Part shown: in pieces, positions 5,542 through 63,566 of the stretch
Layout of the letters: every line of letters starts with the position of its first letter
Position numbering within the stretch: the stretch's first letter is position 1
Virus record (IMG/VR): IMGVR_UViG_3300035696_002894
Span: 1,283-65,282 of that record
Origin: a virus
Taxonomy: Duplodnaviria > Caudoviricetes
Length of the DNA: 64,000 nucleotides
Reading direction: 5' to 3' (one strand)
Made by a program: the position numbers and the translations under genes
Notes under the pieces: model-generated
What the model saw: only the letters and a program-made list of their open reading frames with translations
Database searches by the model: none
What the model was told of the DNA's origin: nothing

Positions 5542-6119
5542 CAGCCATACGCGCCCCCGGGCGCGAACCGGCTCGGTCCCTCGACCGTGGAGTCTTCCGA
5601 GATCCGCTCCAAAACCATCGTGTAAGCGACCTTTCCTTCCTGATGCCAAACCTGCGATGCGAGCCTGTACTTCTGCCTGACCGGCAACGCGTCCCCCCGT
5701 CCGTCCTCGAAGACCTCGTAGAAAAAGCCCACGTTCGGAGGCAAAGGATCGAGCAGGACTGCCTCATGTCGCTCCGCGTTCGGGGGCACGACCCTGCCCC
5801 GCAGCTGCTCCTCCGTGTACCGAACCGAGACGCTCCGCAGGCGGATACTTCCCTCTGGCAGAATACCAGCCGAAAAGCTCTTGAGTGCGACCGCGTCGAG
5901 CCCCTCAACCCTGGGGGTAGGCAATACCTCCATCCGGGCAACCTCCCGCTCGTCCCCCTCACCACGAGCAGCACCGCTCCAAAGAGTCCAGACGAGGAAC
6001 ACCCGATGGCTCCGCAGCCCGGTCTTGACCGCAACTTGCCGCGCTCGGTCCACGACCGGCGCGATGCGGTTGAGAATGGTCCCCTTCGCTTCCCTCGGGC
6101 TGAGCGGACGGACCTTCAT
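5541..6119 (-). CDS. putative head closure / head-tail joining protein
   Basis: 192 aa, beta-rich, in the neck gene position. Confidence 0.45.
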   Translation of the reverse strand: MKVRPLSPREAKGTILNRIAPVVDRARQVAVKTGLRSHRVFLVWTLWSGAARGEGDEREVARMEVLPTPRVEGLDAVALKSFSAGILPEGSIRLRSVSVRYTEEQLRGRVVPPNAERHEAVLLDPLPPNVGFFYEVFEDGRGDALPVRQKYRLASQVWHQEGKVAYTMVLERISEDSTVEGPSRFAPGGAYG

Positions 6120-6144
6120 GCCCCGGAGGCTACCCGTCGCCGGG

Positions 6145-6164
6145 CCTTGAGGTCGACCTCAAGG
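6145..6164. repeat. 20-bp palindrome, perfect
   Basis: 12 nt upstream of TAGCCT. Confidence 0.97.
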
Positions 6165-6267
6165 CAACGTCCGGGTGCCCCTAGACGGGGTGGACTAGCG
6201 GGAAGGTCTCTTAGCCCCTCTAGTCCACCGATCCCCCCGCCAAGGACATCCTCGGGGCAGGACGGCG

Positions 6268-6609
6268 CTACTTCACCGAGCGCAGGCGAAGAATGAGCGC
6301 CGAGGGCGCCGTCACCACCATCGCGTTCGGCGCGGCGCCCGCATCCGAGGTCGCGGCGGAGCTCAGCGCGGTCGCGAGCTGCCCGGCGATGGTCACCGCG
6401 GTCCCGGCGTCCGGGAGTAGGCAGACGACGGCGATGCTCGCAGCGTTCGTGTTCCCGCTTGCGACCTGGGTCAGAACGCACGTCGCCGTGTTGATCCCCG
6501 CCTGCTCCGCCTCGCTGATGATGGTCTTCTTCTGCGCTGGCGTCAGAAAACAGCCGGCGAGCAGAAGGGCGAAGGCGAACGGACGGATGACGCTGAGCTT
6601 GCAGCGCAT
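6268..6609 (-). CDS. small lipoprotein
   Basis: Hydrophobic signal followed by lipobox-like LLAGC. Confidence 0.5.
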   Translation of the reverse strand: MRCKLSVIRPFAFALLLAGCFLTPAQKKTIISEAEQAGINTATCVLTQVASGNTNAASIAVVCLLPDAGTAVTIAGQLATALSSAATSDAGAAPNAMVVTAPSALILRLRSVK

Positions 6610-6725
6610 GATGAGATCCTCCTCGTAGGTTGAGAGGCGCAGGATGAGCTATCCTCGTGGAAGAAGAAAGCCCCCGCGCGCTGGTAACGCCGGGAGCCCG
6701 ACCGCGAACCTGAACGGAGGCTGCG

Positions 6726-7473
6726 ATGCGATTTAAGCTACTGGATCTCACAGGGCGTGTCTTTGGTAGCCTGACGGTTCTCGAACTCAGCGGACGCCGC
6801 AGGTATCCGAATCAAACCGTTCCAGTGTGGCGCTGTCGCTGCGTATGTGGCAACGAACGCAACGTCGAAAGCGGAAAGCTTCTAGCCAAGTCTTCACCGG
6901 TACTTTCATGCGGATGTAAGCGCGCAGTACCGCGCGGCGGCTGGTCTGCGATCAACCAAATCCACGGAGATAGCGGTACACCGGAGCATCGCGCATGGGC
7001 GTCAATGCGTACACGGTGCTTACGTTCAACGTATCGCTTCTTCAAGAACTACGGCGGACGCGGGATCCGTATCTGCGCAGCTTGGTCTTCATACGCGACC
7101 TTCCTCGCTGACATGGGCCGGCGCCCATCGCCGAAGCACTCACTCGACCGAAAAAAACAACGATGGACACTACTCATGCGGGAAGTGCCCGGAGTGCATC
7201 GCGAACGGTTGGTCGTCGAACTGTCGCTGGGTAACAATGACAGTTCAGCAGCGTAACAAGCGGTCGAACCGCGTACTTCTCTACCGCGGTGAACGAAAGA
7301 CACTCGCCGAGTGGTCCATTCAATACGGACTCTCATCCGCAACGCTAACGCGGCGGCTCGACCGTGAAGGTCTGTGCCTCGAAAAAGCACGCACGCGACC
7401 GCTCTTCCGAGTACTCAACCGTGAGAAACCGCGATGTTCACCCCACCCCCGCCGCCCCACTGCGACCACCTAG
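6726..7473 (+). pseudogene. HNH homing endonuclease split by a 1-nt frameshift in an A7 run (7151-7157)
   Basis: WRCRCVCG, HGDSGTPEHRAWASMRTRC, YGGRGIRIC, DMGRRPS..SLDR; removing one A gives KNNDGHYSCGKC...NCRWVT and joins ORF 7237-7473. Confidence 0.8.
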
Positions 7474-7825
7474 CGTCAAACGGATTGGGACCAGGAACAC
7501 CGAGGAGGTTGCACAATTCTCCTTGAAAATACTTGTAACGCTGTAGGATTTTTTCGAACTCGTCCTCGCGGAACTCGACCTCGTCTGCCTTCGTGAGCAC
7601 GAGCGCGTCCGCGTTCTCTTCGATCTGCATCTCGAGCCGGTCGAGCCTTCGGAGTGTCTGCCGACACCGATCCTCGGCACCAGGCGCGATGGCGTTCATC
7701 GCCCCCTCGAGCATGAACAAACTCTCCATCGCCGCGGGAACGCCAAGCACGAACGTTTGGATAGCGTTCGCGTTGGGGTAACCCGTGTGATGTTTGATGG
7801 AGACGCGCTCCTCGTCGGTCAACAC
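7415..7825 (-). CDS. putative head-tail connector / head completion protein
   Basis: 136 aa helical protein two genes downstream of the capsid gene; GTG start. Confidence 0.5.
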   Translation of the reverse strand: MLTDEERVSIKHHTGYPNANAIQTFVLGVPAAMESLFMLEGAMNAIAPGAEDRCRQTLRRLDRLEMQIEENADALVLTKADEVEFREDEFEKILQRYKYFQGELCNLLGVPGPNPFDARWSQWGGGGGVNIAVSHG

Positions 7826-7849
7826 GCGCTAGAGCATGCGCTAGCCGAG

Positions 7850-7866
7850 CCTTGAGGTCGACCTCA
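7850..7866. repeat. palindrome variant (right arm shortened)
   Basis: CCTTGAGGTCGACCTCA. Confidence 0.9.
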
Positions 7867-7962
7867 GCACCTAGGAAGACGCGTCCAGTACGCAAAAGAA
7901 CGGCGGCAACCTTCTGCGCAAAGTTGCCGCCGCAGCTGAGCGTCCGGGTTGGGGTGAAACGC

Positions 7963-8250: not shown

Positions 8251-8630
8251 TACATCATCACTCCAATCTGCTGCTCGTTCTCGCCGACCTCGACGAGCGT
8301 GAATCCTTGTCTACGTATGAACTCGATCGGAAAGTACCTCTCGTCGAGGAGCTTCCCCGGCACGAGGCGCGAATGCCGCCCCTGCTGGTCCACGTACTGC
8401 CTGCCGCCCGGCGGCAGGTTGTCCACCCGGAAGCGACGTACCTTCGGCGGCTCCACGAGCGATGCTGCCGAAGACGACCGCATCGCGCTCTGGACCGGCA
8501 TCCCCGGCTGCGGGATCGCCCCTTCTTGCACGATGTACTTGAGCGGGAGCCCTGCAGGGGTCACCGCCGCTGCCTCGTTCGGGAACACAGGCATCTCTTC
8601 GGGCATGTCTGGCATCTTCTGTCGACCCAT
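8250..8630 (-). CDS. hypothetical protein
   Basis: GGAGG RBS; coupled to the next gene. Confidence 0.5.
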   Translation of the reverse strand: MGRQKMPDMPEEMPVFPNEAAAVTPAGLPLKYIVQEGAIPQPGMPVQSAMRSSSAASLVEPPKVRRFRVDNLPPGGRQYVDQQGRHSRLVPGKLLDERYFPIEFIRRQGFTLVEVGENEQQIGVMM

Positions 8631-8662
8631 CGGTTCTTCCTCCGAGCGAGAGGATGCCCTAG

Positions 8663-8692
8663 CCGAGCCTTGAGGTCGACCTCAAGGCTCGG
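8663..8692. repeat. 20-bp palindrome (8668-8687) extended to 30 bp
   Basis: CCGAG and CTCGG flanks. Confidence 0.97.
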
Positions 8693-13460: not shown

Positions 13461-13853
13461 CTATCGCCCGGTCAGCTTGTACGGCTTTCGGTTCGGTCCA
13501 CCTGGCGCGCTACCCACGGCGAACCCGCTCTTCGGATCAGTCCTGACCGTAGAAGGCTCCGCGCCGCCCTTGACGAACGGAAGCTTGCCGCCTTCGGGCA
13601 CACTTTCCTTGTTCTCGTAGCTGCCCTTCTGCTGCGTCGGCGTCGCCATATTGCCTCCAGGGTTCGCGATGAAGTCATTGCCCCCGCTCTTGTCGCCGGT
13701 CCCCGAGGGGTTGGCGATGAAGTCGTTGCCATTGCCTGACGACGTGCCTGCCGGGTTCTTCATAAAGTCGTTGCCGCCAGCCGGCTTGCCGCCATCTGCG
13801 GGTCCGAAGGGGCTCGTCTTGCCGTCGCCGCTCATGCTTCCGTTGCCTGCCAT
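13461..13853 (-). CDS. Gly-rich low-complexity protein with three GNDF repeats
   Basis: GNDFMKNP, GNDFIANP twice; GGAG RBS; ends KPYKLTGR. Confidence 0.5.
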   Translation of the reverse strand: MAGNGSMSGDGKTSPFGPADGGKPAGGNDFMKNPAGTSSGNGNDFIANPSGTGDKSGGNDFIANPGGNMATPTQQKGSYENKESVPEGGKLPFVKGGAEPSTVRTDPKSGFAVGSAPGGPNRKPYKLTGR

Positions 13854-13866
13854 GGGTGCTCTCCGT

Positions 13867-13886
13867 CCTTGAGGTCGACCTCAAGG
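13867..13886. repeat. 20-bp palindrome, perfect
   Basis: Intergenic. Confidence 0.97.
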
Positions 13887-14951: not shown

Positions 14952-15977
14952 CTACGGGTAGCGCTTCGACGGCCGGCTAAGCAACTCAGGCATCCTTGAG
15001 GTCGACATGACCGCGGGGCGCCCGTGGTACTTCAGTTTTTGCTTCTCGTACTCACGCTGCACATCCGCATCACTCTTCGGCCGGAACGCAGCCGGCACTG
15101 GCCATGACATCCGATGCGCGACGACAACCTCGCGATCGTTGGGCCGGTTCGGCGGCGTCATGAAGTGCGCGTGATCGCCCTTCCAGTTCACGTACTCGAA
15201 CGGCTCGTTCATGCCCCGCACTTCGCCATGCACGTTCCACGAGTCCGCACCGGTTCGGTTGTCGAACGTCGCGACGAGGATGCGCACCATGTCTCCGAGC
15301 TCCTCGTGCGCGCGCTTCATCGCCTCTTGACCACCCTTGTTGTACGCGGCAAACGTCTCCGTGCGGGTCAGCCTCTCCGCCCAGTACTTCGGAGCACCTT
15401 GAAGGAACGGCGATGCTTTCACGAAGCTTGCCCTGACCTCGTCCCAGGGCTTCCTCGTCACGAGCGCGCTCTGCATCTCCCGCTCGAACTTCTCGGCAAC
15501 AGAAAACCCGTAGCGCTGCAGGATGCCTCCCCCCTTGCCATCCGGGTGCTCGACCATGAGCCTGCGGACCACGCTCGCGTTCGCACCCACAACCGCGGCG
15601 TCACTCATCGCGGCCTCGTCGAGCGCGAGCGGCTGGACGATCCCCGTAAACTGCTTCTCCGCTGCTTTCAGGTATCGAGCGACCCCGTCCGAAGCATCCC
15701 TCGCCGCAACCTCGGCACGCGCCGGAATATAGCCGCCCAACCTATCGACGAGGCTCCGGAGCACGAACCGGATCTCGCGCAAGGTCAGCTCCATCTGCCT
15801 TCGCGTAAAGCTCTTACCCATGCTCGGCCGGAGTGCACGATGCGTCTCTAGCCGCGCGGCAAGGTCCGTCTCCGCGCTCTTCAGGATGCGATAGAGCGCT
15901 TGCCCACTCGTCCTGTCGGCAAGCGCGAGAGCCTCGACTCTGGCGCGGCGGAAGATGGCGAGGGGATCGTTCGGCAC
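14952..15977 (-). CDS. minor head / head morphogenesis protein (SPP1 gp7 / Mu gpF family)
   Basis: AERLTRTETFAAYNKG, DNRTGADS, PPNRPNDR; directly after portal. Confidence 0.75.
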   Translation of the reverse strand: MPNDPLAIFRRARVEALALADRTSGQALYRILKSAETDLAARLETHRALRPSMGKSFTRRQMELTLREIRFVLRSLVDRLGGYIPARAEVAARDASDGVARYLKAAEKQFTGIVQPLALDEAAMSDAAVVGANASVVRRLMVEHPDGKGGGILQRYGFSVAEKFEREMQSALVTRKPWDEVRASFVKASPFLQGAPKYWAERLTRTETFAAYNKGGQEAMKRAHEELGDMVRILVATFDNRTGADSWNVHGEVRGMNEPFEYVNWKGDHAHFMTPPNRPNDREVVVAHRMSWPVPAAFRPKSDADVQREYEKQKLKYHGRPAVMSTSRMPELLSRPSKRYP

Positions 15978-15990
15978 GATCGCGAGCTTA

Positions 15991-16010
15991 CCTTGAGGTC
16001 GACCTCAAGG
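15991..16010. repeat. 20-bp palindrome, perfect
   Basis: Abuts TAAGCT. Confidence 0.97.
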
Positions 16011-16146: not shown

Positions 16147-18042
16147 TCAATCCGCTTCAGATGAAAGCTTCGGTCCCTTGAGCTTGCCGATCGGAGGTTC
16201 TTCGCCATCCACGCCTCCCGCGGAACCAGCCCGCTGTGCCCCGACGTTGCCCGTGAACGCGCCTTTCGACATCCCCCCGCCCTGTCCTCCCAGAACACCC
16301 CCCGGCGCACCTGTCGCACCTGCAAACGGCACGGGCTTCGGTTCTGCCGTACCCGAGCTCAAGATCTTCAGCTCCCCCTCCCCTGGGAGCTTCTTCGTCA
16401 GCTCGGTCGTTCTGCCGCCGGCATCCGCGTCCCCAAACGCGTTCGCAGCCATCTCGTGCTCCGCTTGCTGCTCACTCTGAAGCCGCTTCCACTCCTCTGC
16501 AGGATCGCGCCCGTAGGTCTTCGCAGCCTCCTCGTTCGCCGTCTGCGTGCTGATGATCTGCTTCGCCCCCGTCGCGGTACTCAGCGTCGCGATCTCCGCC
16601 GTTCGATCCGTCGCCGTCGCCTGGAAGTACGCAGGCCATTGAAGGTCCAGATCTTCACTCACGCCTGGGACACGCTCGACGAGCTTCTCGTTCTTCTCGC
16701 CCGTCGTCGAATCCACGTCACTCACGACGCGCGGCGGAAGCTTTACGATCTCCTCATCACTCCGATCCCTAGCAACGCGCATCATCTGTGAGACGAGCTG
16801 CGCGACCGCCTTGCCGTACGTACCGCGCAGCACATTACCCGCGCTGAGCATCGGCGCGTAGATGACTTTCAGCGCGACACTACTGATGCCTGCAGCTGCG
16901 ACTTCGTTCGGATCTGCGAGCACGCACTGCGCAACCTCGAGAATCGCCTTCTTCTTCTCGTTGAAGAGCGCGAGCCCCGCCGTCACGCTCGTACCAGCTA
17001 GCTCGAGGTACTTCGCATCGCCGTCCGCACCGACCCTCAACGCGTTGTCCGACCCCTTCGCAACCTCGCGGGTCTGGAGCTTCGCGGGGTCCATCTTCAG
17101 AACGAGCGTCGGATCGAGGTTCAGGACCGTACCGCGGGTCAGAACGCTATAGACGATGTCGAGATCGTCGAAGTCGTCTGTTTGCCCATCGTAATCGGGT
17201 AAGCCGTCGATCTCGTCACTCGGGATGTTCTGTACCCAAACGAAGTGCGCCGCCCCATCGTTGTGCTCGATCACCTCGGCGGGCACCCACGTGGGCTCGA
17301 CTACCTTGCCGTGCTCGCGGACCGGACACGGCTCGAAGAGCACGTCCCGATCGGTATCCCAGTAGCGATGGTACCAGTACCAGTTCTGAACGAACCGCCG
17401 CTTCTCCGCGTCCCATTCCTCATACGGATAGGTGTAGACCTCGCTGATCTTCGCAGGCACGAGCTCCTGACGGTCAAGCCATTCGTGCACGACGAGATGC
17501 TTCGCTCTGTGGATCTCGATGCGCGGTTTGCCCGCGTGGAAGGACCACGAGATGCCTACGGTGCCGCATCCGCCGCCCCAATTGCGAGCCTGGATCATCT
17601 TCGGCCAGAGATCGCACGCCAGCACGAGTGCCGCCGCGTAGTCACTGGCATCGTCATCGCCCGGGTACTTCAGAGCCGGGCATCGGTCCTCGCCAAAGAG
17701 CAGCGCGGAGAAGGCGTTCACGATCAGCTTCGCGAGCGGGTACTGCGCTCTCGGATACCGCTGCGCAAGCGGCACCAGGAAGGGTGCCGGCGCGCTCGCG
17801 AACATCGGCACCGATGTCGGCGGTCCTGGCATCCGGACGTTACCGTCGAAGTCGGCGAACTTGTGCCAGTGCTGGCTGCACTGCGCATAGCTCTCGCGCC
17901 GCTGGAGCATCTGAAAACGCGGGCTGTTCAGAAGCGACTGCGCGCCGAAGTTCCTATCGAACGTGACCGGCGCATGGCTCGCGTTCTCTGCACCGTGCGG
18001 GGTCACGGCGTAGGTCGACGGAAGGGTCACGGCTCCGGGCAT
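16147..18042 (-). CDS. portal protein (SPP1 gp6-like)
   Basis: 631 aa; LIVNAFSALLFGE, AAAGISSVALKVIYAPML, IISTQTA; precedes the gp7-like gene. Confidence 0.7.
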   Translation of the reverse strand: MPGAVTLPSTYAVTPHGAENASHAPVTFDRNFGAQSLLNSPRFQMLQRRESYAQCSQHWHKFADFDGNVRMPGPPTSVPMFASAPAPFLVPLAQRYPRAQYPLAKLIVNAFSALLFGEDRCPALKYPGDDDASDYAAALVLACDLWPKMIQARNWGGGCGTVGISWSFHAGKPRIEIHRAKHLVVHEWLDRQELVPAKISEVYTYPYEEWDAEKRRFVQNWYWYHRYWDTDRDVLFEPCPVREHGKVVEPTWVPAEVIEHNDGAAHFVWVQNIPSDEIDGLPDYDGQTDDFDDLDIVYSVLTRGTVLNLDPTLVLKMDPAKLQTREVAKGSDNALRVGADGDAKYLELAGTSVTAGLALFNEKKKAILEVAQCVLADPNEVAAAGISSVALKVIYAPMLSAGNVLRGTYGKAVAQLVSQMMRVARDRSDEEIVKLPPRVVSDVDSTTGEKNEKLVERVPGVSEDLDLQWPAYFQATATDRTAEIATLSTATGAKQIISTQTANEEAAKTYGRDPAEEWKRLQSEQQAEHEMAANAFGDADAGGRTTELTKKLPGEGELKILSSGTAEPKPVPFAGATGAPGGVLGGQGGGMSKGAFTGNVGAQRAGSAGGVDGEEPPIGKLKGPKLSSEAD

Positions 18043-18060
18043 CGCGAAACCACCCTATCG

Positions 18061-18306
18061 TCAGGGTTCCTTGAGGTCGACCTCAAGGAAGCTAGGCGCG
18101 GAAGGCTCTGTGTCTCGCCGAGCACGGTCCATCTGCACCTGAAGTGCGCTGCGAACACGGTCCTCATCTTCCGCGTCTCCGATCTCGAGCGCCGTCGCAC
18201 GCACCGTCGCAGCTGCAAGATGCTCGGCGACATCCTCGGCGACATCTAGCTGCTGACAGTCCTCGAAGTAATCCACATCGCTCGAGAAGAACCATGCAGG
18301 GTTCAT
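18061..18306 (-). CDS. acidic hypothetical protein; C-terminus reads through the palindrome (LEVDLK)
   Basis: ATGA coupling to the lysozyme stop. Confidence 0.35.
   Translation of the reverse strand: MNPAWFFSSDVDYFEDCQQLDVAEDVAEHLAAATVRATALEIGDAEDEDRVRSALQVQMDRARRDTEPSAPSFLEVDLKEP
18067..18090. repeat. 20-bp palindrome (18069-18088) extended to 24 bp
   Basis: Upstream of portal. Confidence 0.97.
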
Positions 18307-23172: not shown

Positions 23173-23210
23173 ACGGCGAGAGGCTACAGCACCTCGCCGC
23201 CTAGCTCACG

Positions 23211-23711
23211 CTAGGGCGTGTTCAGGACCGCGCTCATGCTGAACGAGTACTGACCTGCCGTCGGCGACTGCGCCGCGGTGACGACAAGCATGTAGTCCGC
23301 TCCCCCCTGGGCGACGCTCCCATTCGCACTATTCGTGCTCGGCGGCAGATCGCAGAGCGAAACAGCATCGAAGAAGACGACCTCGTTCAAGGTCAGAGTT
23401 ACGGCAGCGCTGTTGACGAGATACCAGTGCTGCGAACTCGCGTCCCAGACGTACAGGTTTCCCGTCGGCGCCGCTGCGCCTGTCGGCCCGCACATAGCGA
23501 CCGCAATACGCTGGACGACCCCCTCGCTCGCGCCGACGATCCTGCACGACAAAACGTTGTCGACGTTCGCCCCCGCTTTCGCACCTGGACCCTGCGGAGG
23601 AGTACCCGGTGTTCCGTACACGGTCGTCGGTGCGCTATCCGCCCCCATCGCGACCGTCGCATTCGAGTCCGGCGTGGTCACATAGCGGTAGAAAACTTTC
23701 TGGAACTGCAT
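23211..23711 (-). CDS. hypothetical structural protein
   Basis: 166 aa, beta-rich, leaderless-type start. Confidence 0.5.
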   Translation of the reverse strand: MQFQKVFYRYVTTPDSNATVAMGADSAPTTVYGTPGTPPQGPGAKAGANVDNVLSCRIVGASEGVVQRIAVAMCGPTGAAAPTGNLYVWDASSQHWYLVNSAAVTLTLNEVVFFDAVSLCDLPPSTNSANGSVAQGGADYMLVVTAAQSPTAGQYSFSMSAVLNTP

Positions 23712-46237: not shown

Positions 46238-46253
46238 ACGCGAGATGATGCCG

Positions 46254-46273
46254 CCTTGAGGTCGACCTCAAGG
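46254..46273. repeat. 20-bp palindrome, perfect
   Basis: Contains the polymerase stop codon; 3 nt from CATCAT. Confidence 0.97.
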
Positions 46274-48670: not shown

Positions 48671-48738
48671 CTCCACACCTCCAGCACACCCCAAGGATGC
48701 CGCACCCCAGGCAGCTCCCGGCAAATTTGCCGGAAGCT

Positions 48739-48758
48739 CCTTGAGGTCGACCTCAAGG
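48739..48758. repeat. 20-bp palindrome, perfect
   Basis: Contains the second methyltransferase stop codon. Confidence 0.97.
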
Positions 48759-50701: not shown

Positions 50702-51357
50702 AACACTCCTCCGTTCTCGCAGCCCAACAACACGCGCCTCGCGCGCCAAACCTCGTCCTTAATGATCGTCCTCGCGCTCTTCGGCGTCAGGCTGAAAAGC
50801 CGCTTGTCCAAAGGGTTCGCGATCCACGCGCGTACAGCAACGTCGACGTCTCCCCCCGCCGCGATGAGCGCGTGCAACGCGGCGCGCCCGGCAAACGTCT
50901 GCGCAACCTCAGGGAGAAGCCGAAGCATCTCGCCGTAATCGTGCGCATCCTCTACTAGAGGTCGCTCGTCAGCGTAGCTCTCCAGCAACTGCGCACTCGA
51001 ATTGCCCTCTTTCATGAGCGCACTCACACACCACGCATACTGGCCCGGCCCTTTGCGAGTGTGCTTGTTGCACTGGCGCTGCATGTGAATCCAACGCGTC
51101 GCCTTGTTGTGCGCGCACCAGCAGACGTACCCGCCTAACGGCATGCCGCCAGCCTTCCACCGACCGAGCGCAATCCATGCGCCAAGCAAAAGCTCTTGCT
51201 CGACGTCGTCGACCGTGACAGTGGGGGGCAGCTTCCAATCGCGAAAAAGCGCAACGGCCATGCGGTGCCAGTCCGCGCGCGTCCGCTGATAGAAACTCCT
51301 GAACGTGATCTGTTTCGTCCGGAGCGCATGCAGCTCCGTCGACAAGTTCGACGCCAT
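50698..51357 (-). CDS. sigma70/ECF-like factor
   Basis: Region 2-like DDVEQELLLGAWIALGRW...LGGY; divergent C-terminus. Confidence 0.5.
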   Translation of the reverse strand: MASNLSTELHALRTKQITFRSFYQRTRADWHRMAVALFRDWKLPPTVTVDDVEQELLLGAWIALGRWKAGGMPLGGYVCWCAHNKATRWIHMQRQCNKHTRKGPGQYAWCVSALMKEGNSSAQLLESYADERPLVEDAHDYGEMLRLLPEVAQTFAGRAALHALIAAGGDVDVAVRAWIANPLDKRLFSLTPKSARTIIKDEVWRARRVLLGCENGGVL

Positions 51358-53962: not shown

Positions 53963-54217
53963 TCACGCATCATTCCGCGGCCCGCCCGGCCGGCCGATCG
54001 CAGCTCGCGGCGCCTTCCGGAGCACCGAATCATCTCGCAACCAGCGGAAAAGCGTGTCGCGCGAGATCCCTAGGATCGTCGCAGCACCGGCCCATCCCGC
54101 GTAGTCGCGCACGTGCCCTTCGGCGCGGCACATCGCATCCAAGATGATCCTACGCCAGCGCGCTGGCTCACGGTATCGCAATAGCCGCAACGCGGCCGCG
54201 CTCACCGACGCCTTCAC
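53963..54217 (-). CDS. small Fis-like HTH protein
   Basis: AATILGISRDTLFRWL. Confidence 0.6.
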   Translation of the reverse strand: MKASVSAAALRLLRYREPARWRRIILDAMCRAEGHVRDYAGWAGAATILGISRDTLFRWLRDDSVLRKAPRAAIGRPGGPRNDA

Positions 54218-54474
54218 TTAACACCTCCTCTGACAGGCCGAAAATCCCACGAGCGCCTACCCAGCCAGCCCGGATAGTGCCCACTCCTGCACTGAATCAG
54301 AGCAACGATCCCAAGCCGCCGAACGTATTTGCGCAATGTTCGCGGTGCGACGTGGAGCTTCCGCGCCGCGACCTCCGGCCAGCCATCCCCGGCATCGTAC
54401 GCCGCGAGAATTTTCTCGATCGCCTGCTCGGGAGCAGAGCGCACAAGTCGCAAAATCAGTCTCGTCATCGCCAT
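54214..54474 (-). CDS. small Fis-like HTH protein
   Basis: AARKLHVAPRTLRKYV. Confidence 0.6.
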   Translation of the reverse strand: MAMTRLILRLVRSAPEQAIEKILAAYDAGDGWPEVAARKLHVAPRTLRKYVRRLGIVALIQCRSGHYPGWLGRRSWDFRPVRGGVK

Positions 54475-54524
54475 CTTCTCGATCCTATAGATGCCGCACT
54501 CCGTGCATCCTCGGCAAGCGCCCC

Positions 54525-54548
54525 GATCTTGAGGTCGACCTCAAGATC
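54525..54548. repeat. symmetric palindrome variant, 24 bp
   Basis: GATCTTGAGGTCGACCTCAAGATC; inside the HTH gene cluster. Confidence 0.95.
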
Positions 54549-56019: not shown

Positions 56020-56207
56020 GCCTGCGCGATCACCGGCACATCGTCGAGGAACGCGCCTATCGCGAGCTGCACCTGCCTAAGCGTCCGGTCCACCCTCGCT
56101 CGCACTTCCTCGTATCCCGGATCGATCCAAGGAGGCTCGTAGTCCAGCAGCGCCGCACGTGCGTCCTCAATTCCTCTGATGATCCCATCGACGCGCTGCC
56201 TGTCCAT
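56016..56207 (-). CDS. hypothetical protein
   Basis: Coupled to neighbouring genes. Confidence 0.35.
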   Translation of the reverse strand: MDRQRVDGIIRGIEDARAALLDYEPPWIDPGYEEVRARVDRTLRQVQLAIGAFLDDVPVIAQA

Positions 56208-56225
56208 ATCCTGTGTCCGATCCTC

Positions 56226-58766
56226 TCAACCATGATGCCGCTTCGACTTCTTCCCCCCGCCACTGAAACTATCCATCGCATCCGGTCCTTCCCGCTCACT
56301 GGGCCGATCGTAAGGCACGCTCGTTCCTCGACCGAACCACGCAAGATCTGGGTTCCATTCCAGCTCGACGCTCAAAGGCCAGGGTGCGTAGCGCTGCTTG
56401 AGCACGTCGACGACGATCATGTCGTCCGGCACGTTCTTCCACTGCGCAGGCCGATAGACACCGAGGATAGTGTCGGCAACATCAACCCACGCACTCGTCC
56501 CCTTGATGCCCTCGCGCGTCGGACGCTTGTCCGCGCGTACCTCGACATCCTTCAGCCTCTGCTGCTGCAACAAGATGCCATGGCACTTCGTCCCCTCGCA
56601 GATCGCTTGCTGCCGCCATAGTGCCTGCTGAATCTCGCTCGGCGAATCATCGACGAGGCATCGGTCCCAAAGGTCTGCGATGAACACGTCAGCACCAGAG
56701 TCTTCAATCAGGTGCTGGACGATGTCGAGGTTCTCGCCGTTCGTCTCCTTGCCAGAATGCTGAAAGGGGTTCGGGATGTACCTCACCACCTTGTCGATCT
56801 CTTTCGCGCGCGCCTCGACCGCACAAATCATCTCCTCCGACGCGCCTATCTGAAGTTGCCTACGGCTGACACACACGTTCTCTTCCGCAAGGCTCATCAC
56901 GGCCATCAGCTCGCTCGTCTCCTCGGCGCTCATCTCCCAGGCGCCGTAGAGCACACGCCGCCTCTGTCGCGCCTGTCCGAGCGCGATGCGCGCCGCGATG
57001 GTGCTGTTATGCGTAGGAATCATCGATCGCCCCGCTAAAAACAAGTGCGAAGGCGCATCCACAGCAATACACCTCACAGGAACAGATGGCACAGGGCGAA
57101 CCGCCTCGATATACCGGCGCTTGTGCACACCGCGACGCTTACCCGTGCGCAACAAACATGCTTTGCGCTGCAACCTGAACAGCGGAAAGTCCGCCGTAAA
57201 GTGCACGTTCCACGCATCCCCAATCACGCGTCCCCCGATCTTCGCTACTTTGTGCGAAGCGACACTTTTCACACCAAGTGTAGCCAAAAGCTCAAGAAAC
57301 CCATCCCGAAGTACAGGGCTCGTCGTGCACCAGGACGCTTTGCCAAGACAACGATCCACCGTACCATCCATGTCCATCAGCCCCTGTAGCAGCGCGCGCC
57401 GCTGCACCTCCGATGCGCGCAAATATATCACAGGAATGTGTTTCCGATTCAGCACCCCCAGCCGCTGCAAATCACCCTTCAGTCCACTTACACACCAACG
57501 CCCCTTCGTACTCTTCTGCTCCCACACGCTATATCCTAGGGCACGTATCTCCTCCACAATCTGCACATCGAACTTCGTATAATAGCCCGCCGAGCTAGTG
57601 TCGTCGCCCAACCACACACCTAATAAGTACGGATGCACGGGTAAATGCACATCCGGAAGTATTAGCGGCGCAGCTACCGCTACAGCATGGTTCACCTCCT
57701 CACGACTTGCCGTGCAGAAACGAAGTGTTTTGGCAATTTCTATGGTCGTTCTTACCTTTCCCGATACATCACTTCGCGTGTCGGCATGGTGTAACAACAA
57801 CGCATCCGAGACATGCGGCCTACGCACTATGGCCCCGCGCCTACGTCGTCGTTGTTCTCGAAACTCAGGCGTCCGCAAACGAGACAACGCCCGTTCTCGC
57901 GCACTCATCGTCAGCCATAAATGTTCCGCGTCCGCAACGATCCGCGAACCATCCGAAAAGAGCAGCTCGTAACATTCGTGCTCCAACATCACGGATGAGC
58001 ACCACACGACTCGCGTAATTGCACCACTCTCTGCAAAAACTAGATCGCCCGGCACAATAGCACCCATCGTTGTCCACCCACCCGGGGTAGGAATTGGCGT
58101 ATCCAACGCCAAAGCCTTCCCGCCGCCCGATGTCCCAGTGATTACCGTGATCTTCCCCGGCTTTGCTGCCGGGATCAGCCGCGGCTCTCCAGTCTCATCC
58201 TGGTACGTATCGAGCCCGGCGATCCCGTAGGGATAAATGCCGTGCCCCGCTGCACGTGCACGAAGATCTACGCCGAGCTTCGTCGAAACCTCGCTCGGCG
58301 AAAGAATCCTCGCTCGCTCACGCCAGACGCCGAACGTATCCCCAACTGCGCGAGCAAGCCCACGCACCTTCGCCGGCTCCGAGAGCGGGTCAGCAAGTGC
58401 CTCGAGCAGCGTCGTAATGGGCCCGCGTACGGCGTCTGCGCGAAGAGCATCCCACCGCACGCCTTCGACGTAGTGCGAGAGATCTGGCGGAACCTCGGGG
58501 CGCGACGACGCGAGCTGCGAGAGATACTCGATATCCAGATCTGGAAACAGCCGCTTCGCAGCGGCCGGGTCGTACGCGACGCCTCGACGTTCAAGTTCCG
58601 CAAGCGCTACGACCGCTGCGCGATGCTCTGGAATCTGCCAGCGCTCTGGCGGAAGCACGCGCAAGAGTCGTCGTCGCTGCTCGCTTGAGACGAGCAACGC
58701 GGCAAGCACAACCTGCTCGGTGTGCTCGTCGATCCGCACCGTCCGGCTCGGCGCCTGACCGGGCAC
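56226..58766 (-). CDS. dnaB: DnaB-like replicative helicase containing an intein
   Basis: Spliced Walker A GTSGGGK|ST, WEMS, IADL, QQQR, ADTILGVYR; start approximate. Confidence 0.85.
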   Translation of the reverse strand: MPGQAPSRTVRIDEHTEQVVLAALLVSSEQRRRLLRVLPPERWQIPEHRAAVVALAELERRGVAYDPAAAKRLFPDLDIEYLSQLASSRPEVPPDLSHYVEGVRWDALRADAVRGPITTLLEALADPLSEPAKVRGLARAVGDTFGVWRERARILSPSEVSTKLGVDLRARAAGHGIYPYGIAGLDTYQDETGEPRLIPAAKPGKITVITGTSGGGKALALDTPIPTPGGWTTMGAIVPGDLVFAESGAITRVVWCSSVMLEHECYELLFSDGSRIVADAEHLWLTMSARERALSRLRTPEFREQRRRRRGAIVRRPHVSDALLLHHADTRSDVSGKVRTTIEIAKTLRFCTASREEVNHAVAVAAPLILPDVHLPVHPYLLGVWLGDDTSSAGYYTKFDVQIVEEIRALGYSVWEQKSTKGRWCVSGLKGDLQRLGVLNRKHIPVIYLRASEVQRRALLQGLMDMDGTVDRCLGKASWCTTSPVLRDGFLELLATLGVKSVASHKVAKIGGRVIGDAWNVHFTADFPLFRLQRKACLLRTGKRRGVHKRRYIEAVRPVPSVPVRCIAVDAPSHLFLAGRSMIPTHNSTIAARIALGQARQRRRVLYGAWEMSAEETSELMAVMSLAEENVCVSRRQLQIGASEEMICAVEARAKEIDKVVRYIPNPFQHSGKETNGENLDIVQHLIEDSGADVFIADLWDRCLVDDSPSEIQQALWRQQAICEGTKCHGILLQQQRLKDVEVRADKRPTREGIKGTSAWVDVADTILGVYRPAQWKNVPDDMIVVDVLKQRYAPWPLSVELEWNPDLAWFGRGTSVPYDRPSEREGPDAMDSFSGGGKKSKRHHG
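57006..58115 (-). mobile_element. Ala1 (class 3-type) intein with LAGLIDADG endonuclease (370 aa)
   Basis: ALALDTPIPTPGGW; DAEHLW; YLLGVWLGD; LLQGLMDMDG; VRCIAVD...IPTHN|S. Confidence 0.9.
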
Positions 58767-58770
58767 CTGA

Positions 58771-58794
58771 GACCTTGAGGTCGACCTCAAGGTC
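58771..58794. repeat. 20-bp palindrome (58773-58792) extended to 24 bp
   Basis: Contains a stop codon; upstream of dnaB. Confidence 0.97.
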
Positions 58795-59321: not shown

Positions 59322-59561
59322 TCAGCGGGACTTCATCGCTGCACTCGACTCCTGCAGCGCTACCTTGAACGCCGCGATCTTCGTCGCATACGACTTGCGA
59401 GCAAACGCCTCGCACGCGGCGTACGCACGCGCCATCGCCTGCTCAGGCGTCTCGCCGTCTTTCACTACGGTTGTCATCTCGAACGGCCCGATGTCGAAGT
59501 TGTTGTACCGCTCGGGGGAAACCTTCATCAGACCCCACGTCACCGTCACCGTATCAACCAT
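59322..59561 (-). CDS. hypothetical protein
   Basis: GGAG RBS before MVDTVTV. Confidence 0.45.
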   Translation of the reverse strand: MVDTVTVTWGLMKVSPERYNNFDIGPFEMTTVVKDGETPEQAMARAYAACEAFARKSYATKIAAFKVALQESSAAMKSR

Positions 59562-61555
59562 CGCGTTTCTCCTTGGTAGCTGCTGCATGATGCCGCACTC
59601 GGAACCGCAACCGACTTCGCGCGCCTGCGCTCCTTTCGCGCGTCGATCCACTCGCCATCCTCGCCTTGAACGAACACCGGCCGCCCATCATCGAAGAGCG
59701 CAGGCCAGTCCTTCGCGCGACAAGCGTCCAGCAGATAGTAGAGACGCGCCGGTCCTTCTCCCCCCGCGATGCGACAAATGCGCCCAGCGACCTGTCCGAA
59801 AAGTTGCCGGTTGCTTGCGACAGGCATCGCCGCGATGCCAACTCCAACACGAGGAAGATCAACACCGGTCCCCACAGCCTGCACCGTTCCTACGGCGACC
59901 CGCAAAGAACCACCGAGAAGACCTTCCACCGCCTGATCAAGCGCAGCCTTGTGCTCAGCACCTCCAACCATCAGCCCCGCAGCAATGCCGCCCCTCGCCA
60001 GCTTCCCGACGAGCCTTCTGCAATGCTCCACCCGCAAGCTGAAGACCAAGATCTGCTCACCACGCGCTCGCTCCTGCTCGACCACGCGCAGCACATGCTC
60101 GTCTCGTCCATCCGCCTGCGCCATCGCGTCGAGCATCTCGCGATACTGATCACCACTGCTCCCCACCATCGAATCCACAGGGGACTTCCAGCCTGTGGGG
60201 ATGACCCGAATCTCGACATCCCGCACACGCTTCCTCGCAACGAGCTCCTTGCGATTGATGCTCAGCGCGAGATCGCCGAACAGGTCGTACGCGAGAAACT
60301 CCTTCCTGTCCGCACGCCGCTCATCGGCAGAAACACCGACCCGATAGCGCGCCGCGAACGGATCGATGCTCGCGATGAATGTCGGTGCGCTGAAGCGCTG
60401 CAATTCATCGGCGATGACTACGCCGAACGCGTCGAACACAGGATCGCCAGCCGGAAACCTCGCAAGCGCCTGCTGCATCGCGACCGTGATCGCACCCACC
60501 GTCTTCTTGCCTCCACGGATCTGACCCACGAAAGCACGCTTTACACCGAGCCCATCCCTGATGCGCTCCATCCACTGCGAGAACAGAGCACCGGTCCAGA
60601 CGACCACGATCGTCGGCTTGCGCACCCGCGCGATCAGCGCGAGGCATATCTCCGTTTTTCCGGAGTTGTGTACCGCAACACCGTTCGCAATGAACGCCGC
60701 TGCGCGCTCGACTTCTAAGTCATACGTTGCTTGCCGACCTGCGTACTCGACGCTTACTAGCTGCCGCGGTGCAAGCATCGACTTCCGACCCCTGGTACCC
60801 ATCACACCGTCAAACAACACAGCAGCACCGACCGAAAGTGCATCCAGCCGCATCCAGCCGTGCGACGTCAGCAAACGGTGATCACACGTCAGCGTCAGAA
60901 CACAACCACCCGCGAACTTTGCACGATAAACATCGCGCACGCCGCTACTGCGCGCTGCAAGAACACGCGCAAGATGAACAGTCCCATCTTCGAACGGCGC
61001 ACGTACGAACGTAGTGATGTCACTTCTCCACCGACGACCTGCGCAAAGACCGCCATTGAATGCGTACACCACATGGTCAAGGCGCATTTTCGCGCCTTTT
61101 CCAGCGCGATTGATCGTCACTATCGTATCGCCAACCAAACACCCTGTAGGCGCGCGCAGATAACACGTCTGCCGAGCAACCACGCGCTCGAGCGCCTCCG
61201 CCTGGTCCTCGAAAAGCGTCCTGCGAAGCTCGGGCCATTGGAAACTGGACGCTGGCACGTATGCGCCGTCACTCCGCGCGTCCTTGACCCGAAGCTCAGC
61301 ACCACTCGAGACGAGAAGCGCGCGCACTCGCGACATTCCTCCCCTCGGAAGCGATAGCCATGCGCCCTCGTCACGCCATGTCTTGATGAGCCTCGACTCC
61401 TTGCGATGGTCGAACCGGATACCGAGATGCCGCATCTTCTCGTGCTGCGGGTTCTTGTGTTCGAAGAGCGCGCGTAGCGCATCGAAATACTCCATCGAGA
61501 GGTCCGCGCGAAAGACGCGCACACGCGAATCGACCAAAACACGAACGATGCTCAC
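59546..61555 (-). CDS. SF2 (DEAD/DEXH) helicase containing a mini-intein
   Basis: Spliced APTG|SGKT, IADE, VSA, GTGVDLP, QVAGRICR. Confidence 0.88.
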   Translation of the reverse strand: MSIVRVLVDSRVRVFRADLSMEYFDALRALFEHKNPQHEKMRHLGIRFDHRKESRLIKTWRDEGAWLSLPRGGMSRVRALLVSSGAELRVKDARSDGAYVPASSFQWPELRRTLFEDQAEALERVVARQTCYLRAPTGCLVGDTIVTINRAGKGAKMRLDHVVYAFNGGLCAGRRWRSDITTFVRAPFEDGTVHLARVLAARSSGVRDVYRAKFAGGCVLTLTCDHRLLTSHGWMRLDALSVGAAVLFDGVMGTRGRKSMLAPRQLVSVEYAGRQATYDLEVERAAAFIANGVAVHNSGKTEICLALIARVRKPTIVVVWTGALFSQWMERIRDGLGVKRAFVGQIRGGKKTVGAITVAMQQALARFPAGDPVFDAFGVVIADELQRFSAPTFIASIDPFAARYRVGVSADERRADRKEFLAYDLFGDLALSINRKELVARKRVRDVEIRVIPTGWKSPVDSMVGSSGDQYREMLDAMAQADGRDEHVLRVVEQERARGEQILVFSLRVEHCRRLVGKLARGGIAAGLMVGGAEHKAALDQAVEGLLGGSLRVAVGTVQAVGTGVDLPRVGVGIAAMPVASNRQLFGQVAGRICRIAGGEGPARLYYLLDACRAKDWPALFDDGRPVFVQGEDGEWIDARKERRRAKSVAVPSAASCSSYQGETRWLIR
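60665..61141 (-). mobile_element. mini-intein (159 aa, no endonuclease)
   Basis: CLVGDTIV; TCDHRLLTSHGW; TYDLEV...FIANGVAVHN|S. Confidence 0.9.
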
Positions 61556-61591
61556 CGCGCGCATGATGCCGCGTACGACACAAAGAACACC

Positions 61592-62088: not shown

Positions 62089-62349
62089 TCACGGAGACAG
62101 ACTCGCGAGGCGACCGACCTCTACAGACAAACGCGCGACGGCCGCGGCGGATACCTTCCCGCCCCCCGAAAGCTTCGTCAGCAGAGTCTCGCTCGTCCGT
62201 AACTCACGCAGCACACGCATCTTGCCTAACCGCACGCACTCTCGCGCGATCGCCTTCTCGAGCTCCGCAGGTACGCTCACCTGCGCGCTGACGAAAAAAC
62301 GCGGACTCTTCAGCCCATCTGCCGTCCTGCGTACCCGCGTGTCCGCCAT
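62089..62349 (-). CDS. hypothetical protein
   Basis: GGAG RBS before MADTRVRR. Confidence 0.45.
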   Translation of the reverse strand: MADTRVRRTADGLKSPRFFVSAQVSVPAELEKAIARECVRLGKMRVLRELRTSETLLTKLSGGGKVSAAAVARLSVEVGRLASLSP

Positions 62350-62395
62350 TGCTCCATCTCCGCCATCACATACACAGATGATGCCGCCATGCGGC

Positions 62396-62614
62396 CTACC
62401 CCGACCACGACCCCGACCGCGACCTCGACCGCGACCACGACCACGACCCCGACCGCGACCACGACCTCGACCGCGACCACGACCACGACCCCGACCCCGA
62501 CCACGACCACGACCGCGACCCCGACCCCAACCTCGACCGCGACCACGACCGCGACCACGACCCCGACCACGACCCCGCGCGGTCAAAACCGCCGCGCAGG
62601 ATTGCAGCATTCAC
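62396..62614 (-). CDS. Ser/Arg/Trp/Gly dipeptide-repeat micro-protein, copy 1
   Basis: GTGA coupling; VNAAILRGGFD followed by (W/R/G)S repeats. Confidence 0.55.
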   Translation of the reverse strand: MNAAILRGGFDRAGSWSGSWSRSWSRSRLGSGSRSWSWSGSGSWSWSRSRSWSRSGSWSWSRSRSRSGSWSG

Positions 62615-62961
62615 TTCGCAATCCTCGGCAACGAATGGGCCCAGGGCGCACTATCCACCAACGCCCCACGCCAAATAACCGCGCGCACCGGGTACGGCTC
62701 AAACTCCCGTATCAACCCCTTCGACAAAAACTCCCCATAGCGCTCAGTATCGGCAACCCATCCTGCCTCTTCAAGCAAGAAGAAGTCCGGTCCGATCGCA
62801 ACCACACGTCCAATGTTGATCATCGTGACGCTGCGAAATACCCACGCCTCGCCGACCTTGATCGGCAGCTCTATCGATACCTGCGTCCCGGCAACGTTAC
62901 CCACCAAAGCTGCGATTTCGCGAATCTGCTTCACGCTTAACTCTTCGATGTTCAGTTCCAT
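62611..62961 (-). CDS. conserved phage protein (DUF6948-like by recollection)
   Basis: FRSVT..IGRVV...LEEAGWVADTERY..FL..G...E.EP....RGALVD. Confidence 0.55.
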   Translation of the reverse strand: MELNIEELSVKQIREIAALVGNVAGTQVSIELPIKVGEAWVFRSVTMINIGRVVAIGPDFFLLEEAGWVADTERYGEFLSKGLIREFEPYPVRAVIWRGALVDSAPWAHSLPRIAK

Positions 62962-63015
62962 GCTCCATCTCCGCCATCTCCGCCATCACATACACAGATG
63001 ATGCCGCCATGCGGC

Positions 63016-63327
63016 CTACCCCGACCACGACCCCAACCGCGACCTCGACCCCGACCACGACCACGACCCCGACCGCGACCACGACCGCGACCTCGACCGC
63101 GACCACGACCACGACCCCGACCGCGACCACGACCCCGACCGCGACCACGACCACGACCCCGACCCCGACCACGACCACGACCGCGACCCCGACCGCGACC
63201 CCAACCTCGACCGCGACCACGACCCCGACCACGACCCCGACCTCGACCCCGACCTCGACCGCGACCGCGACCCCGACCGCGACCAACAAGTCACATCAAA
63301 ACCGCCGCGCAGGATTGCAGCATTCAC
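63016..63327 (-). CDS. Ser/Arg/Trp/Gly dipeptide-repeat micro-protein, copy 2
   Basis: Same leader VNAAILRGGFD and same end WSG*; GGAG RBS; start approximate. Confidence 0.55.
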   Translation of the reverse strand: MNAAILRGGFDVTCWSRSGSRSRSRSGSRSGSWSGSWSRSRLGSRSGSRSWSWSGSGSWSWSRSGSWSRSGSWSWSRSRSRSWSRSGSWSWSGSRSRLGSWSG

Positions 63328-63351
63328 TTCTCCTCCGTCATGCGTAGACAA

Positions 63352-63381
63352 TGCTTCCTTGAGGTTGACCTCAAGGAAGCA
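63352..63381. repeat. palindrome variant, 30 bp with a central mismatch (GTTGAC)
   Basis: TGCTTCCTTGAGGTTGACCTCAAGGAAGCA. Confidence 0.95.
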
Positions 63382-63546
63382 ACACTCTCATCGCAGCGCT
63401 CCGCAACCGCCGGGCAGCCTCCGCAATCTCTTCTCATCCGGCAGATACCAGCGCGAACGCCGCGCGCACGATCTCGACCATCTGGGCCTTTACCTTCTGC
63501 TGCTCCGTCGATGCCTTGTTCATGCTCCCCATGATGCCGCGCCGCT

Positions 63547-63566
63547 CCTTGAGGTCGACCTCAAGG
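63547..63566. repeat. 20-bp palindrome, perfect
   Basis: 10 nt from CATCAT. Confidence 0.97.

Follow-up and report, generated by a model that had tools for sequence, protein, structure and literature searches.

Leaderless transcription is well described in high-GC bacteria. In Mycobacterium tuberculosis a TANNNT box lies 7–12 bp upstream of the transcription start site (TSS) with no −35 consensus, a quarter of the genes are leaderless, and GTG is as usable a start codon as ATG (PMC3898074); in the Actinobacteria, Deinococcus-Thermus and some other phyla, leaderless genes can be told by a TANNNT some 12 nt ahead of the start codon (PMC3160421). Among phages, a 17-bp dyad repeat recurs more than 30 times in the Cluster O mycobacteriophages (the Corndog group), alongside predicted SigA promoters whose mRNAs would be leaderless (PMC4351075), and T4-type phages carry PeSL, cassettes of a stem-loop and a promoter described as terminator/promoter units (PMC2839356, PMC4122927). 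Here we analyse a stretch of 64,000 nt (the window), bases 1283–65282 of the 65,282-bp IMG/VR virus record IMGVR_UViG_3300035696_002894, which derives from an uncultured, tailed, probably lytic phage. Many of its genes are preceded, at a nearly constant distance, by a −10-like hexamer of one of two kinds, and often by a 20-bp palindrome further upstream. We are fairly confident of a joint reading in which the hexamers are two classes of sigma-70-family −10 boxes, the starts behind them are leaderless, and the palindrome is a separate module.

The original prediction, made from the sequence alone, named 13 minus-strand starts at which a hexamer is followed by exactly 7 nt and then by ATG or GTG, and the hexamer and spacing are present at all 13. 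The gaps given between palindrome and hexamer (0, 3, 3 and 10–12 nt at 11 sites) are also as described; at 54474 the gap is 39 nt, and 61555 has no palindrome. A Shine-Dalgarno (SD) sequence is mostly missing, as had been claimed: 12 of the 13 sites have no SD core at 4–12 nt, the sole exception being 54474, where AGGA falls inside TAGGAT, 8 nt from the start, and a GGAG found 1 nt before the ATG at four sites is too closely spaced for SD function. One more 7-nt site (TAGCGT-N7-GTG at 3866) and the unit at 18042 were absent from the earlier list. We call the CAT-type boxes class 1, an extended motif GCGGCAT(C/G)NT that reaches beyond a hexamer, and the TAnnnT-type boxes class 2 (TAGCCT, TAGCTT, TAGTCT, TAAGCT, TAGCGT and TAGGGT). 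The units with short hexamer-to-start spacing, named by their start codons, are the following:

3864–3879, minus strand: class 2-like, no palindrome; TAGCGT, 7 nt, GTG at 3866; conserved 269-aa gene
6117–6164, minus strand: class 2; palindrome at 6145–6164, 12-nt gap, TAGCCT, 7 nt, ATG at 6119; conserved 192-aa gene
7823–7869, minus strand: degenerate palindrome at 7850–7869, 11-nt gap, (G)CATGCT, 7 nt, GTG at 7825
15975–16010, minus strand: class 2; palindrome at 15991–16010 abutting TAAGCT, 7 nt, GTG at 15977; MuF-like head morphogenesis gene
18040–18088, minus strand: class 2-like; palindrome at 18069–18088, 11-nt gap, TAGGGT, 9 nt, ATG at 18042; portal gene
23170–23186, minus strand: class 2-like, no palindrome; TAGCCT, 8 nt, ATG at 23172
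23709–23756, minus strand: class 2; palindrome at 23737–23756, 12-nt gap, TAGCTT, 7 nt, ATG at 23711
26545–26590, minus strand: class 2; palindrome with 1 mismatch, 10-nt gap, TAGCCT, 7 nt, ATG at 26547
27807–27854, minus strand: class 2; palindrome with 2 mismatches, 12-nt gap, TAGTCT, 7 nt, ATG at 27809
28356–28401, minus strand: class 2; palindrome variant TCTTGAGGTCGACCTCAAGA, 10-nt gap, TAGCCT, 7 nt, ATG at 28358; 169-aa gene, phrog_1084
34615–34660, minus strand: class 1; palindrome with 2 mismatches, GCGGCATGAT, 7 nt, ATG at 34617
41160–41198, minus strand: class 1; palindrome, 3-nt gap (c+GG), CATCAT, 7 nt, ATG at 41162
46235–46273, minus strand: class 1; palindrome, 3-nt gap, CATCAT, 7 nt, ATG at 46237; 432-aa gene
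54472–54546, minus strand: ambiguous; palindrome variant at 54527–54546, GCGGCATCTA overlapping TAGGAT, 7 nt, ATG at 54474
61553–61572, minus strand: class 1, no palindrome; GCGGCATCAT, 7 nt, GTG at 61555; SNF2-type helicase gene
63521–63566, minus strand: class 1; palindrome, 10-nt gap, GCGGCATCAT, 7 nt, ATG at 63523

Comparison with shuffled upstream regions had been fixed beforehand as the refutation test for the 7-nt spacing, and it returned a clear enrichment. Among 83 first starts called mechanically, TAxxxT lies 7 nt upstream of 8, where about 0.3 are expected and none of 2000 dinucleotide shuffles gives as many, and at any other distance from 0 to 25 nt it precedes only 0–2; CATxxT at 7 nt adds two starts, or five if alternative starts are admitted. 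When the upstream 40 nt were shuffled 2000 times with dinucleotides preserved, none of the shuffles (mean 0.41) was as high as the 10 starts observed with TAxxxT or CATxxT, and 1 of the 2000 (mean 2.8) was as high as the 10 observed with the loose pattern xAxxxT. A scan made without gene calls gives the same picture: the coding strand has 9 occurrences of TAGxxT-N7-ATG/GTG, other spacings yield about 1.5, and the opposite strand has none. The generic xAxxxT shows no enrichment genome-wide, where codon periodicity dominates, and the signal therefore sits in the TAG and CAT classes at gene starts. As to the claim of exactly 7 nt, it stands as the mode and fails as a rule: 23172 and 33734 have 8 nt, 18042 has 9 and 33197 has 11.

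The comparative evidence comes from relatives that are themselves uncultured. Cultured phages are distant, with at most 30% identity in the major capsid protein (MCP); a megablast of 8 kb against 50,697 phage records gave no match, and scanning IMG/VR with a single terminase sequence gave none either. Metagenomic relatives of the MCP number in the hundreds, and an alignment-based MCP scan yielded 80 IMG/VR loci. Eight near-complete relatives were fetched for comparison (83–95 kb, 53–69% GC); one of the eight is a complete 93-kb genome with direct terminal repeats and 53% GC (G004, loci L097–L101). The partial contigs L002–L004 have 71–75% MCP identity to the window phage, L002 and L003 being its two closest relatives. 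A TAxxxT peak 6–7 nt before starts recurs in six of these genomes: G005 has 15 such boxes at 6 nt, and G002, G003, G006, G007 and G010 have 4–8 each at 6–7 nt against about 0–1 elsewhere. G004 is SD-led and has no TAxxxT peak at 6–7 nt.

Orthologous starts, anchored on conserved N-termini, gave 326 non-identical upstream regions, and here hexamer and SD appear almost as substitutes for one another. Orthologues of the genes at 7825, 6119 and 15977 switch between SD-led starts and SD-free starts behind TAnnnT-N6/7; those of 7825, for instance, begin at the same residue whether preceded by TAGGCT-N6/7 or by an SD. Over the whole set, 25 of the 27 starts with TAnnnT at 6–7 nt have no SD, and 223 of the 299 hexamer-free starts have one (25:2 against 76:223; Fisher p = 4e-12, which is not an independent-sample probability because the orthologue sequences are related, a reservation that counts against our reading). 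MCP orthologues have the hexamer in 0 of 63 cases and an SD in 59 of 63, and the orthologues of the scaffold-like genes are always SD-led. Helicase orthologues in G010 and G007 keep (G)GCATCAT-N7-GTG, and this recurrence of motif and spacing at orthologous starts lends support to the otherwise doubtful site at 61555.

Taken with the SD-bearing leaders described below, these observations argue strongly that transcription starts at the start codons in question. The hexamers would be −10 elements of sigma-70-family promoters, at which RNA polymerase would start on the A or G of the start codon and so produce a leaderless mRNA; the same −10 elements would drive transcripts with SD-bearing leaders of 11–36 nt at other genes. 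The earlier claim of a leaderless −10 signature is thus sustained by the fixed distance, the absence of SD sequences, the occurrence of the same motifs ahead of longer, SD-bearing leaders and conservation in the family, with the TSSs themselves predicted.

The claim that CAT-type hexamers belong to replication genes and TAG-type hexamers mostly to structural genes proved correct as a division of the genome into halves. All 14 promoter-like copies of class 1 lie above 32 kb, in the replication half, while the half with the structural, lysis and host-interaction genes has, below 28.4 kb, 9 of the 11 class 2-type sites (hypergeometric p of about 3e-5, by our own arithmetic on the site lists). For GCGGCAT itself the coding strand has 22 occurrences where 9.8 are expected, and the other strand 5 where 6.4 are expected. 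Five or six class 1 copies have the start at 7 nt; the rest have leaders of 11–36 nt, several of them carrying GGAGG, and at least eight class 1 sites have no palindrome nearby. Because class 1 is found both at 7 nt and at 11–36 nt before SD-led starts, it behaves as a −10/TSS signal rather than as a signal for translation. Ahead of the terminase gene, and also of the genes that start at 8630 and 7825, stand weaker variants of the form GCAT(C/G)CT. The class 1 boxes with leaders, and the related units at the terminase gene and at 8630, are:

8628–8687, minus strand: palindrome at 8668–8687, GGCATCCT, 20-nt leader with GGAGGA, ATG at 8630
30299–30353, minus strand: palindrome at 30334–30353, 6-nt gap, GCATCCT, leader with GGAGGA, large terminase start
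32213–32245, minus strand: class 1 within the preceding gene; GCGGCATGCT, leader with GGAGG, ATG at 32215
33195–33218, minus strand: class 1; GCGGCATGAT, 11 nt (a very short leader), ATG at 33197
44875–44937, minus strand: class 1; palindrome, GGCATCGT, 31-nt leader, ATG at 44877
48668–48703, minus strand: class 1; GCGGCATCCT, leader with GGAGG, family B DNA polymerase start
56205–56241, minus strand: class 1, no palindrome; GCGGCATCAT, 24-nt leader, ATG at 56207
62959–63007, minus strand: class 1, no palindrome; 36-nt leader, ATG at 62961

Two side observations concern these sites. A duplicated, repeat-rich region of micro-genes at 62300–63010 on the minus strand has two copies of a class 1 box together with its flank, ggccgcatggCGGCATCATctgtgtatgtgatggcgg, one near 63004 and one near 62384 (62378–62387); and at 48700–48738 (minus strand) a second, unrelated inverted repeat, AGCTTCCGGCAAA/TTTGCCGGGAGCT, separates the palindrome at 48739–48758 from the DNA polymerase gene's class 1 box.

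Class 1 is also present in relatives, as CGGCATGATGGGG in G002, GCGCCATAGT in G005 and GCGGCATAA[C/G] or GCGGCATTA[C/G] in G004, where 12 promoter-like copies begin just past the sigma gene and the structural block has none. Inspection of the regions upstream of class 1 in the window phage and G002 found no shared −35 element. For class 2 the family consensus at orthologous genes is TAGGCT (G in 18/27, G in 16/27, C in 23/27), preceded by TGn in 7/27; whole-genome counts of single class 2 hexamers were too noisy for sigma assignment. We would describe class 1 as a −10-only motif of the replication and nucleotide-metabolism half that is conserved along with a phage sigma factor, and class 2 as a TAnnnT-type box that resembles the primary-sigma promoters of high-GC bacteria and would head structural, lysis and host-interaction genes. 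The two classes may represent early and late promoters.

The phage sigma factor is encoded by a single gene:

50698–51357, minus strand: sigma-70-family factor of 219 aa, with a match to PF04542 (Sigma70_r2)

The region 2 match scores 27–29 bits, the curated cut-off being 24. The protein is conserved in 8 of the 9 relatives searched (in two batches, with 4 of 5 in each), and its homologues are found in phages or metagenomes only, some of them named as sigma-24 family by JGI. The AF2 model has two helical domains at a pLDDT of 82. A sequence search against the PDB gave no match; the best Foldseek matches of the model in the PDB are all sigma factors, at weak significance (E of about 0.01–0.2). 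For region 4 there is no Pfam match, and a C-terminal helical domain is modelled at high pLDDT. A T7-like phage RNA polymerase (PF00940) was searched for in five genomes and not detected; control genomes likewise gave no match, so that this is weak evidence of absence. Since class 1 is non-canonical, is conserved with the sigma factor and begins downstream of its gene in G004, we tentatively suggest that the phage sigma reads class 1.

The palindrome has a 20-bp unit with a nearly invariant 16-bp core, TTGAGGTCGACCTCAA, and 27 copies at up to 4 mismatches. Most copies start somewhere from 6 nt ahead of the upstream stop codon to 4 nt past it. In 17–18 of the 27 a −10-like hexamer comes next, at most 12 nt away. 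The other nine or ten have no hexamer nearby: some stand before an SD (13867), some have nothing obvious behind them, and the one at 25577 has a canonical terminator 67 nt further downstream. The exact 20-mer was found in IMG/VR only in the source record. Seven of nine near-complete genomes, the window phage included, have a perfect palindrome of their own, 18–30 bp long and in 6–34 copies: that of the window phage has the core GGTCGACC, with variants in L002 and L003; G002 has TTGGAAACCCGGGTTTCCAA, and G007, with the fewest copies, a related, CCCGGG-centred palindrome, TGGAATCCCGGGATTCCA; G003 has a 30-mer around GGATCGATCC; and G004, G005 and G009 have CCGCAACACGTGTTGCGG, ACGCCGGATCGATCCGGCGT and CGTAAACCGCGGTTTACG. 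No palindrome was found in G006 or G010, and both keep the −10/start peak, which argues that the core promoter does not include the palindrome. Two features illustrate the copies that have no hexamer:

13851–13886, minus strand: palindrome directly before an SD (GGAG) and ATG at 13853; no −10 hexamer
25475–25510, minus strand: canonical intrinsic terminator with a 15-bp stem (11 GC pairs), a T-tract and the tail TTCTTTTC

The layout at 13853 is repeated in L002 and L003. The terminator at 25475–25510 follows the gene at 25598–25987 and stands directly before an ATG with GGAGC ahead of it. In G004, CCGCAACACGTGTTGCGG abuts the SD (..GCGGtAGGAGG..) of more than 15 genes, and a class 1 box either precedes the palindrome by about 4–9 nt or runs into its 3' end, so that some G004 transcripts would begin at or inside the palindrome. 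In the window, at 4981–5013 (minus strand), a TAGGCT lies 5 nt upstream of the palindrome at 4981–5000, within the end of the preceding gene; if this is a promoter, its transcript would start at the palindrome edge, as in G004. G006, which has no palindrome, carries on its minus strand (L108, about 26.5–38 kb of the record) six copies of TTGACC-N12-CATAAACCGAAACCC, each with a strong hairpin and a T-run about 35 nt later; these may be small RNA genes or promoter-terminator mini-units.

The original prediction had made the palindrome an integral part of the promoter, occupying the −35/spacer region and binding a dimeric regulator on one face of the helix, with two phases one turn apart. The frequency with which a hexamer follows within 12 nt, the clustering of gaps at 3 and 10–12 nt and a perfect two-fold symmetry that fits a dimer all speak for this, as does the palindrome centre, TCGACC, which matches TTGACA at 4 of 6 positions and at gaps of 10–12 nt stands 16–18 bp from the hexamer, where it could act as a weak −35. 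The phasing, however, finds no support in the measurements: centre-to-hexamer distances in the window phage are 10, 13 and 20–22 bp, so that the main groups differ by 7–9 bp rather than 10.5, and in relatives they range over 9–25 bp with no common phase. The spacing groups coincide, moreover, with duplicated cassettes whose similarity spans palindrome, spacer, hexamer and start codon, namely the repeat families D4 (26547/28358, 91% over 45 nt), D5 (41162/46237, 90% over 41 nt), D7 (6119/23711, 78% over 59 nt) and D8 (7825/8630, 90% over 42 nt), and shared descent, for which the T4-type PeSL offer a precedent (PMC4122927), is a simpler account of them than a helical-face constraint. Together with the class 1 promoters that have no palindrome, the palindromes that have no hexamer (most of those in G004 abut an SD) and the two relatives that keep the −10/start spacing without one, this makes an integral role distinctly improbable. 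Alternatively, the regularity might be inherited rather than selected, with PeSL-like cassettes of palindrome, promoter and start spread by duplication or recombination, and with the 7-nt spacing as well as the gap classes going back mainly to a few ancestors. The similarity within the four families makes this a serious possibility, if not the one we would choose, but relatives show the 6–7-nt spacing between flanks that are unrelated, and orthologous genes show it too; the −10/start distance therefore appears to be under selection, and cassette ancestry to explain the palindrome-to-hexamer gaps only.

It might also be supposed that the palindrome acts as an RNA hairpin, whether as a terminator, a processing site or a stabiliser of mRNA ends, and lies near promoters only because intergenic gaps are short. 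Stretches of 40 nt with a perfect or near-perfect copy do fold, into a 9-bp stem with a 4-nt loop at −20 to −24 kcal/mol, and the position of most copies at the upstream stop codon, the placement immediately 5' of the SD in G004 and the union of stem-loop and promoter in T4-type PeSL cassettes (PMC4122927) would all suit such a role. As an intrinsic terminator, however, the palindrome has the hairpin without any T-tract; the copy at 25577 does not serve as the terminator there, given the canonical one 67 nt beyond it; promoterless genes right behind a palindrome must be transcribed through it; and there is no Rfam family match. At every one of the 36 loci where an inverted repeat of the hairpin type recurs, furthermore, the would-be loop is self-complementary, giving a two-fold symmetry through the centre that RNA folding does not need, and variant copies carry uncompensated C.A and G.G mismatches in their outer parts. 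We thus regard the RNA reading as unlikely and favour a DNA-level site, most likely bound by a phage-encoded, two-fold symmetric (dimeric) protein; lying in the interval from the upstream stop codon to the promoter or SD, the palindrome would gate a promoter where it overlaps −45 to −14. That the hexamers are not promoters at all, the genes being served by long polycistronic transcripts and the motif being chance or a translational signal, seems to us very improbable: a search of 20 kb for the classical TTGACA-N17-TATAAT found none, as this view would have it, yet the motifs are strand-specific and at a fixed distance, recur at variable distance where there is an SD-bearing leader, are nearly mutually exclusive with the SD across orthologues, and agree in layout with mapped actinobacterial promoters.

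Against the combination that we prefer, two −10 classes with leaderless starts and a separate palindrome, several further points have to be set. The independent observations number fewer than 13, since several units are the near-duplicates of D4, D5, D7 and D8; the ATG at 63523 opens an ORF (open reading frame) of only 29 codons; and 54474 may be SD-led. At 34617 and 61555 there are alternative in-frame ATGs inside the hexamer. Class 1 has C at its first hexamer position and no recognisable −35, and matches no known sigma consensus. The sigma assignment is circumstantial: the sigma gene of the window phage sits within the class 1 region, and class 2 could instead be the class of the phage sigma, because TAGGCT, too, varies unusually little within the family (23/27 have C at position 5).

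Candidates for the palindrome-binding protein were sought as well. Pfam searches of 30 small or conserved proteins gave helix-turn-helix matches below threshold only (53963–54474), and a presence/absence profile against the two palindrome-free relatives gave no gene limited to palindrome-bearing genomes. A Zn-ribbon protein encoded beside the sigma gene has a weak DUF3102-like match (Atlas). We would speculate that lineage-specific palindromes of 18–30 bp and a fast-evolving phage dimer gate the two promoter classes, one specific to the family's sigma factor and the other of host type, with leaderless starts helping to time replication and virion genes, although we hold this fuller scheme to be doubtful.

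The genome has 62% GC and a negative GC skew along the entire window; all genes are on the minus strand, which long ORFs tile to 94%. Recognised replication genes encode a family B DNA polymerase, DnaB with an intein, a primase and UvrD-type and SNF2-type helicases; RecA, SbcCD, two DNA methyltransferases and a ParB-N protein are also present, as are the large terminase, portal and MCP. Three replication/modification genes appear to bear inteins (35112–37415, 56226–58790 and 59546–61564, minus strand), the signs being LAGLIDADG matches in DnaB, an Intein_splicing match in the SNF2 helicase and methyltransferase domains split far apart. A search for tRNA genes found none. The record is labelled 'provirus', with completeness estimated at 70%; searches of five genomes, four with a completeness of 90% or more, gave neither a tyrosine nor a serine integrase, and the relatives either are linear or carry terminal repeats, so the family is probably lytic and the label doubtful. 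The five GTDB contigs that hold relatives (L082–L086) each consist of an entire phage contig, and the bins they were put in belong to five unrelated taxa; this suggests mis-binning, and the contigs give no host information.

More than 100 related contigs of 83–100 kb exist, with no annotation on them, and if the starts are confirmed, this large family of phages from soil and fresh water would gain a promoter map and corrected start codons. The compact 10-bp motif GCGGCAT(C/G)NT may be what a new phage sigma factor recognises. Leaderless GTG starts behind a TAnnnT box point to actinobacterial-type initiation in the host, and narrow the host prediction to that extent. The analysis also tells a family-wide, palindrome-independent −10/start geometry apart from a lineage-specific palindrome, though the two look like one unit. 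The surprise is moderate, as the basic grammar is textbook for high-GC bacteria.

Several described arrays of sites are comparable in part. The stoperators of Cluster A mycobacteriophages (the L5 gp71 sites) and the conserved inverted repeats of the Streptomyces phage phiC31 occur in 20–30 copies at gene junctions and near promoters and answer to one phage regulator, and stoperators are asymmetric, orientation-dependent and serve a lysogenic repressor. The sites in the window are, in contrast, symmetric, and no tyrosine or serine integrase turned up in the five genomes searched; stoperator-like prophage silencing was dropped on these grounds. C-protein operators of restriction-modification systems also place a palindrome for a helix-turn-helix dimer upstream of a −10 element with a leaderless transcript, but they are single-locus autoregulatory switches, whereas the window holds a genome-wide array, and no C-protein homologue was identified in it.

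The Cluster O phages (PMC4351075), the closest case described, share with the window phage one invariant inverted repeat throughout the genome, mostly at gene junctions, and some promoters predicted at the first codon. Their repeat, however, is 7+3+7 bp with a variable centre and has not been described as promoter-coupled, whereas the window palindrome is perfect through its centre and lineage-specific, with a −10 within 12 nt of about two thirds of its copies; we found no sequence relationship between the two. PeSL (PMC2839356, PMC4122927) likewise consist of small composite units repeated between genes, with similarity covering both stem-loop and promoter, but involve E. coli-type early promoters with leaders in hyperplastic regions, while the units here have no T-tract, are predicted to be leaderless and are spread genome-wide. 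The geometry also matches that of the leaderless promoters of high-GC bacteria (PMC3898074, PMC3160421), which have TANNNT, sometimes extended by TGn, with its first T 12–13 nt before the start, lack an SD and a conserved −35, and use GTG as well as ATG as 5'-terminal start codons; the window differs in that these are phage genes with predicted starts, and that a second class, GCGGCAT(C/G)NT, has the same geometry. The basic grammar is thus known from high-GC bacteria, actinobacteria and their phages, and what is new is the extended class 1 motif, the two-class split by genome half, the association with a family-conserved phage sigma factor, and the setting of all this in a large unannotated phage family with lineage-specific palindromes.

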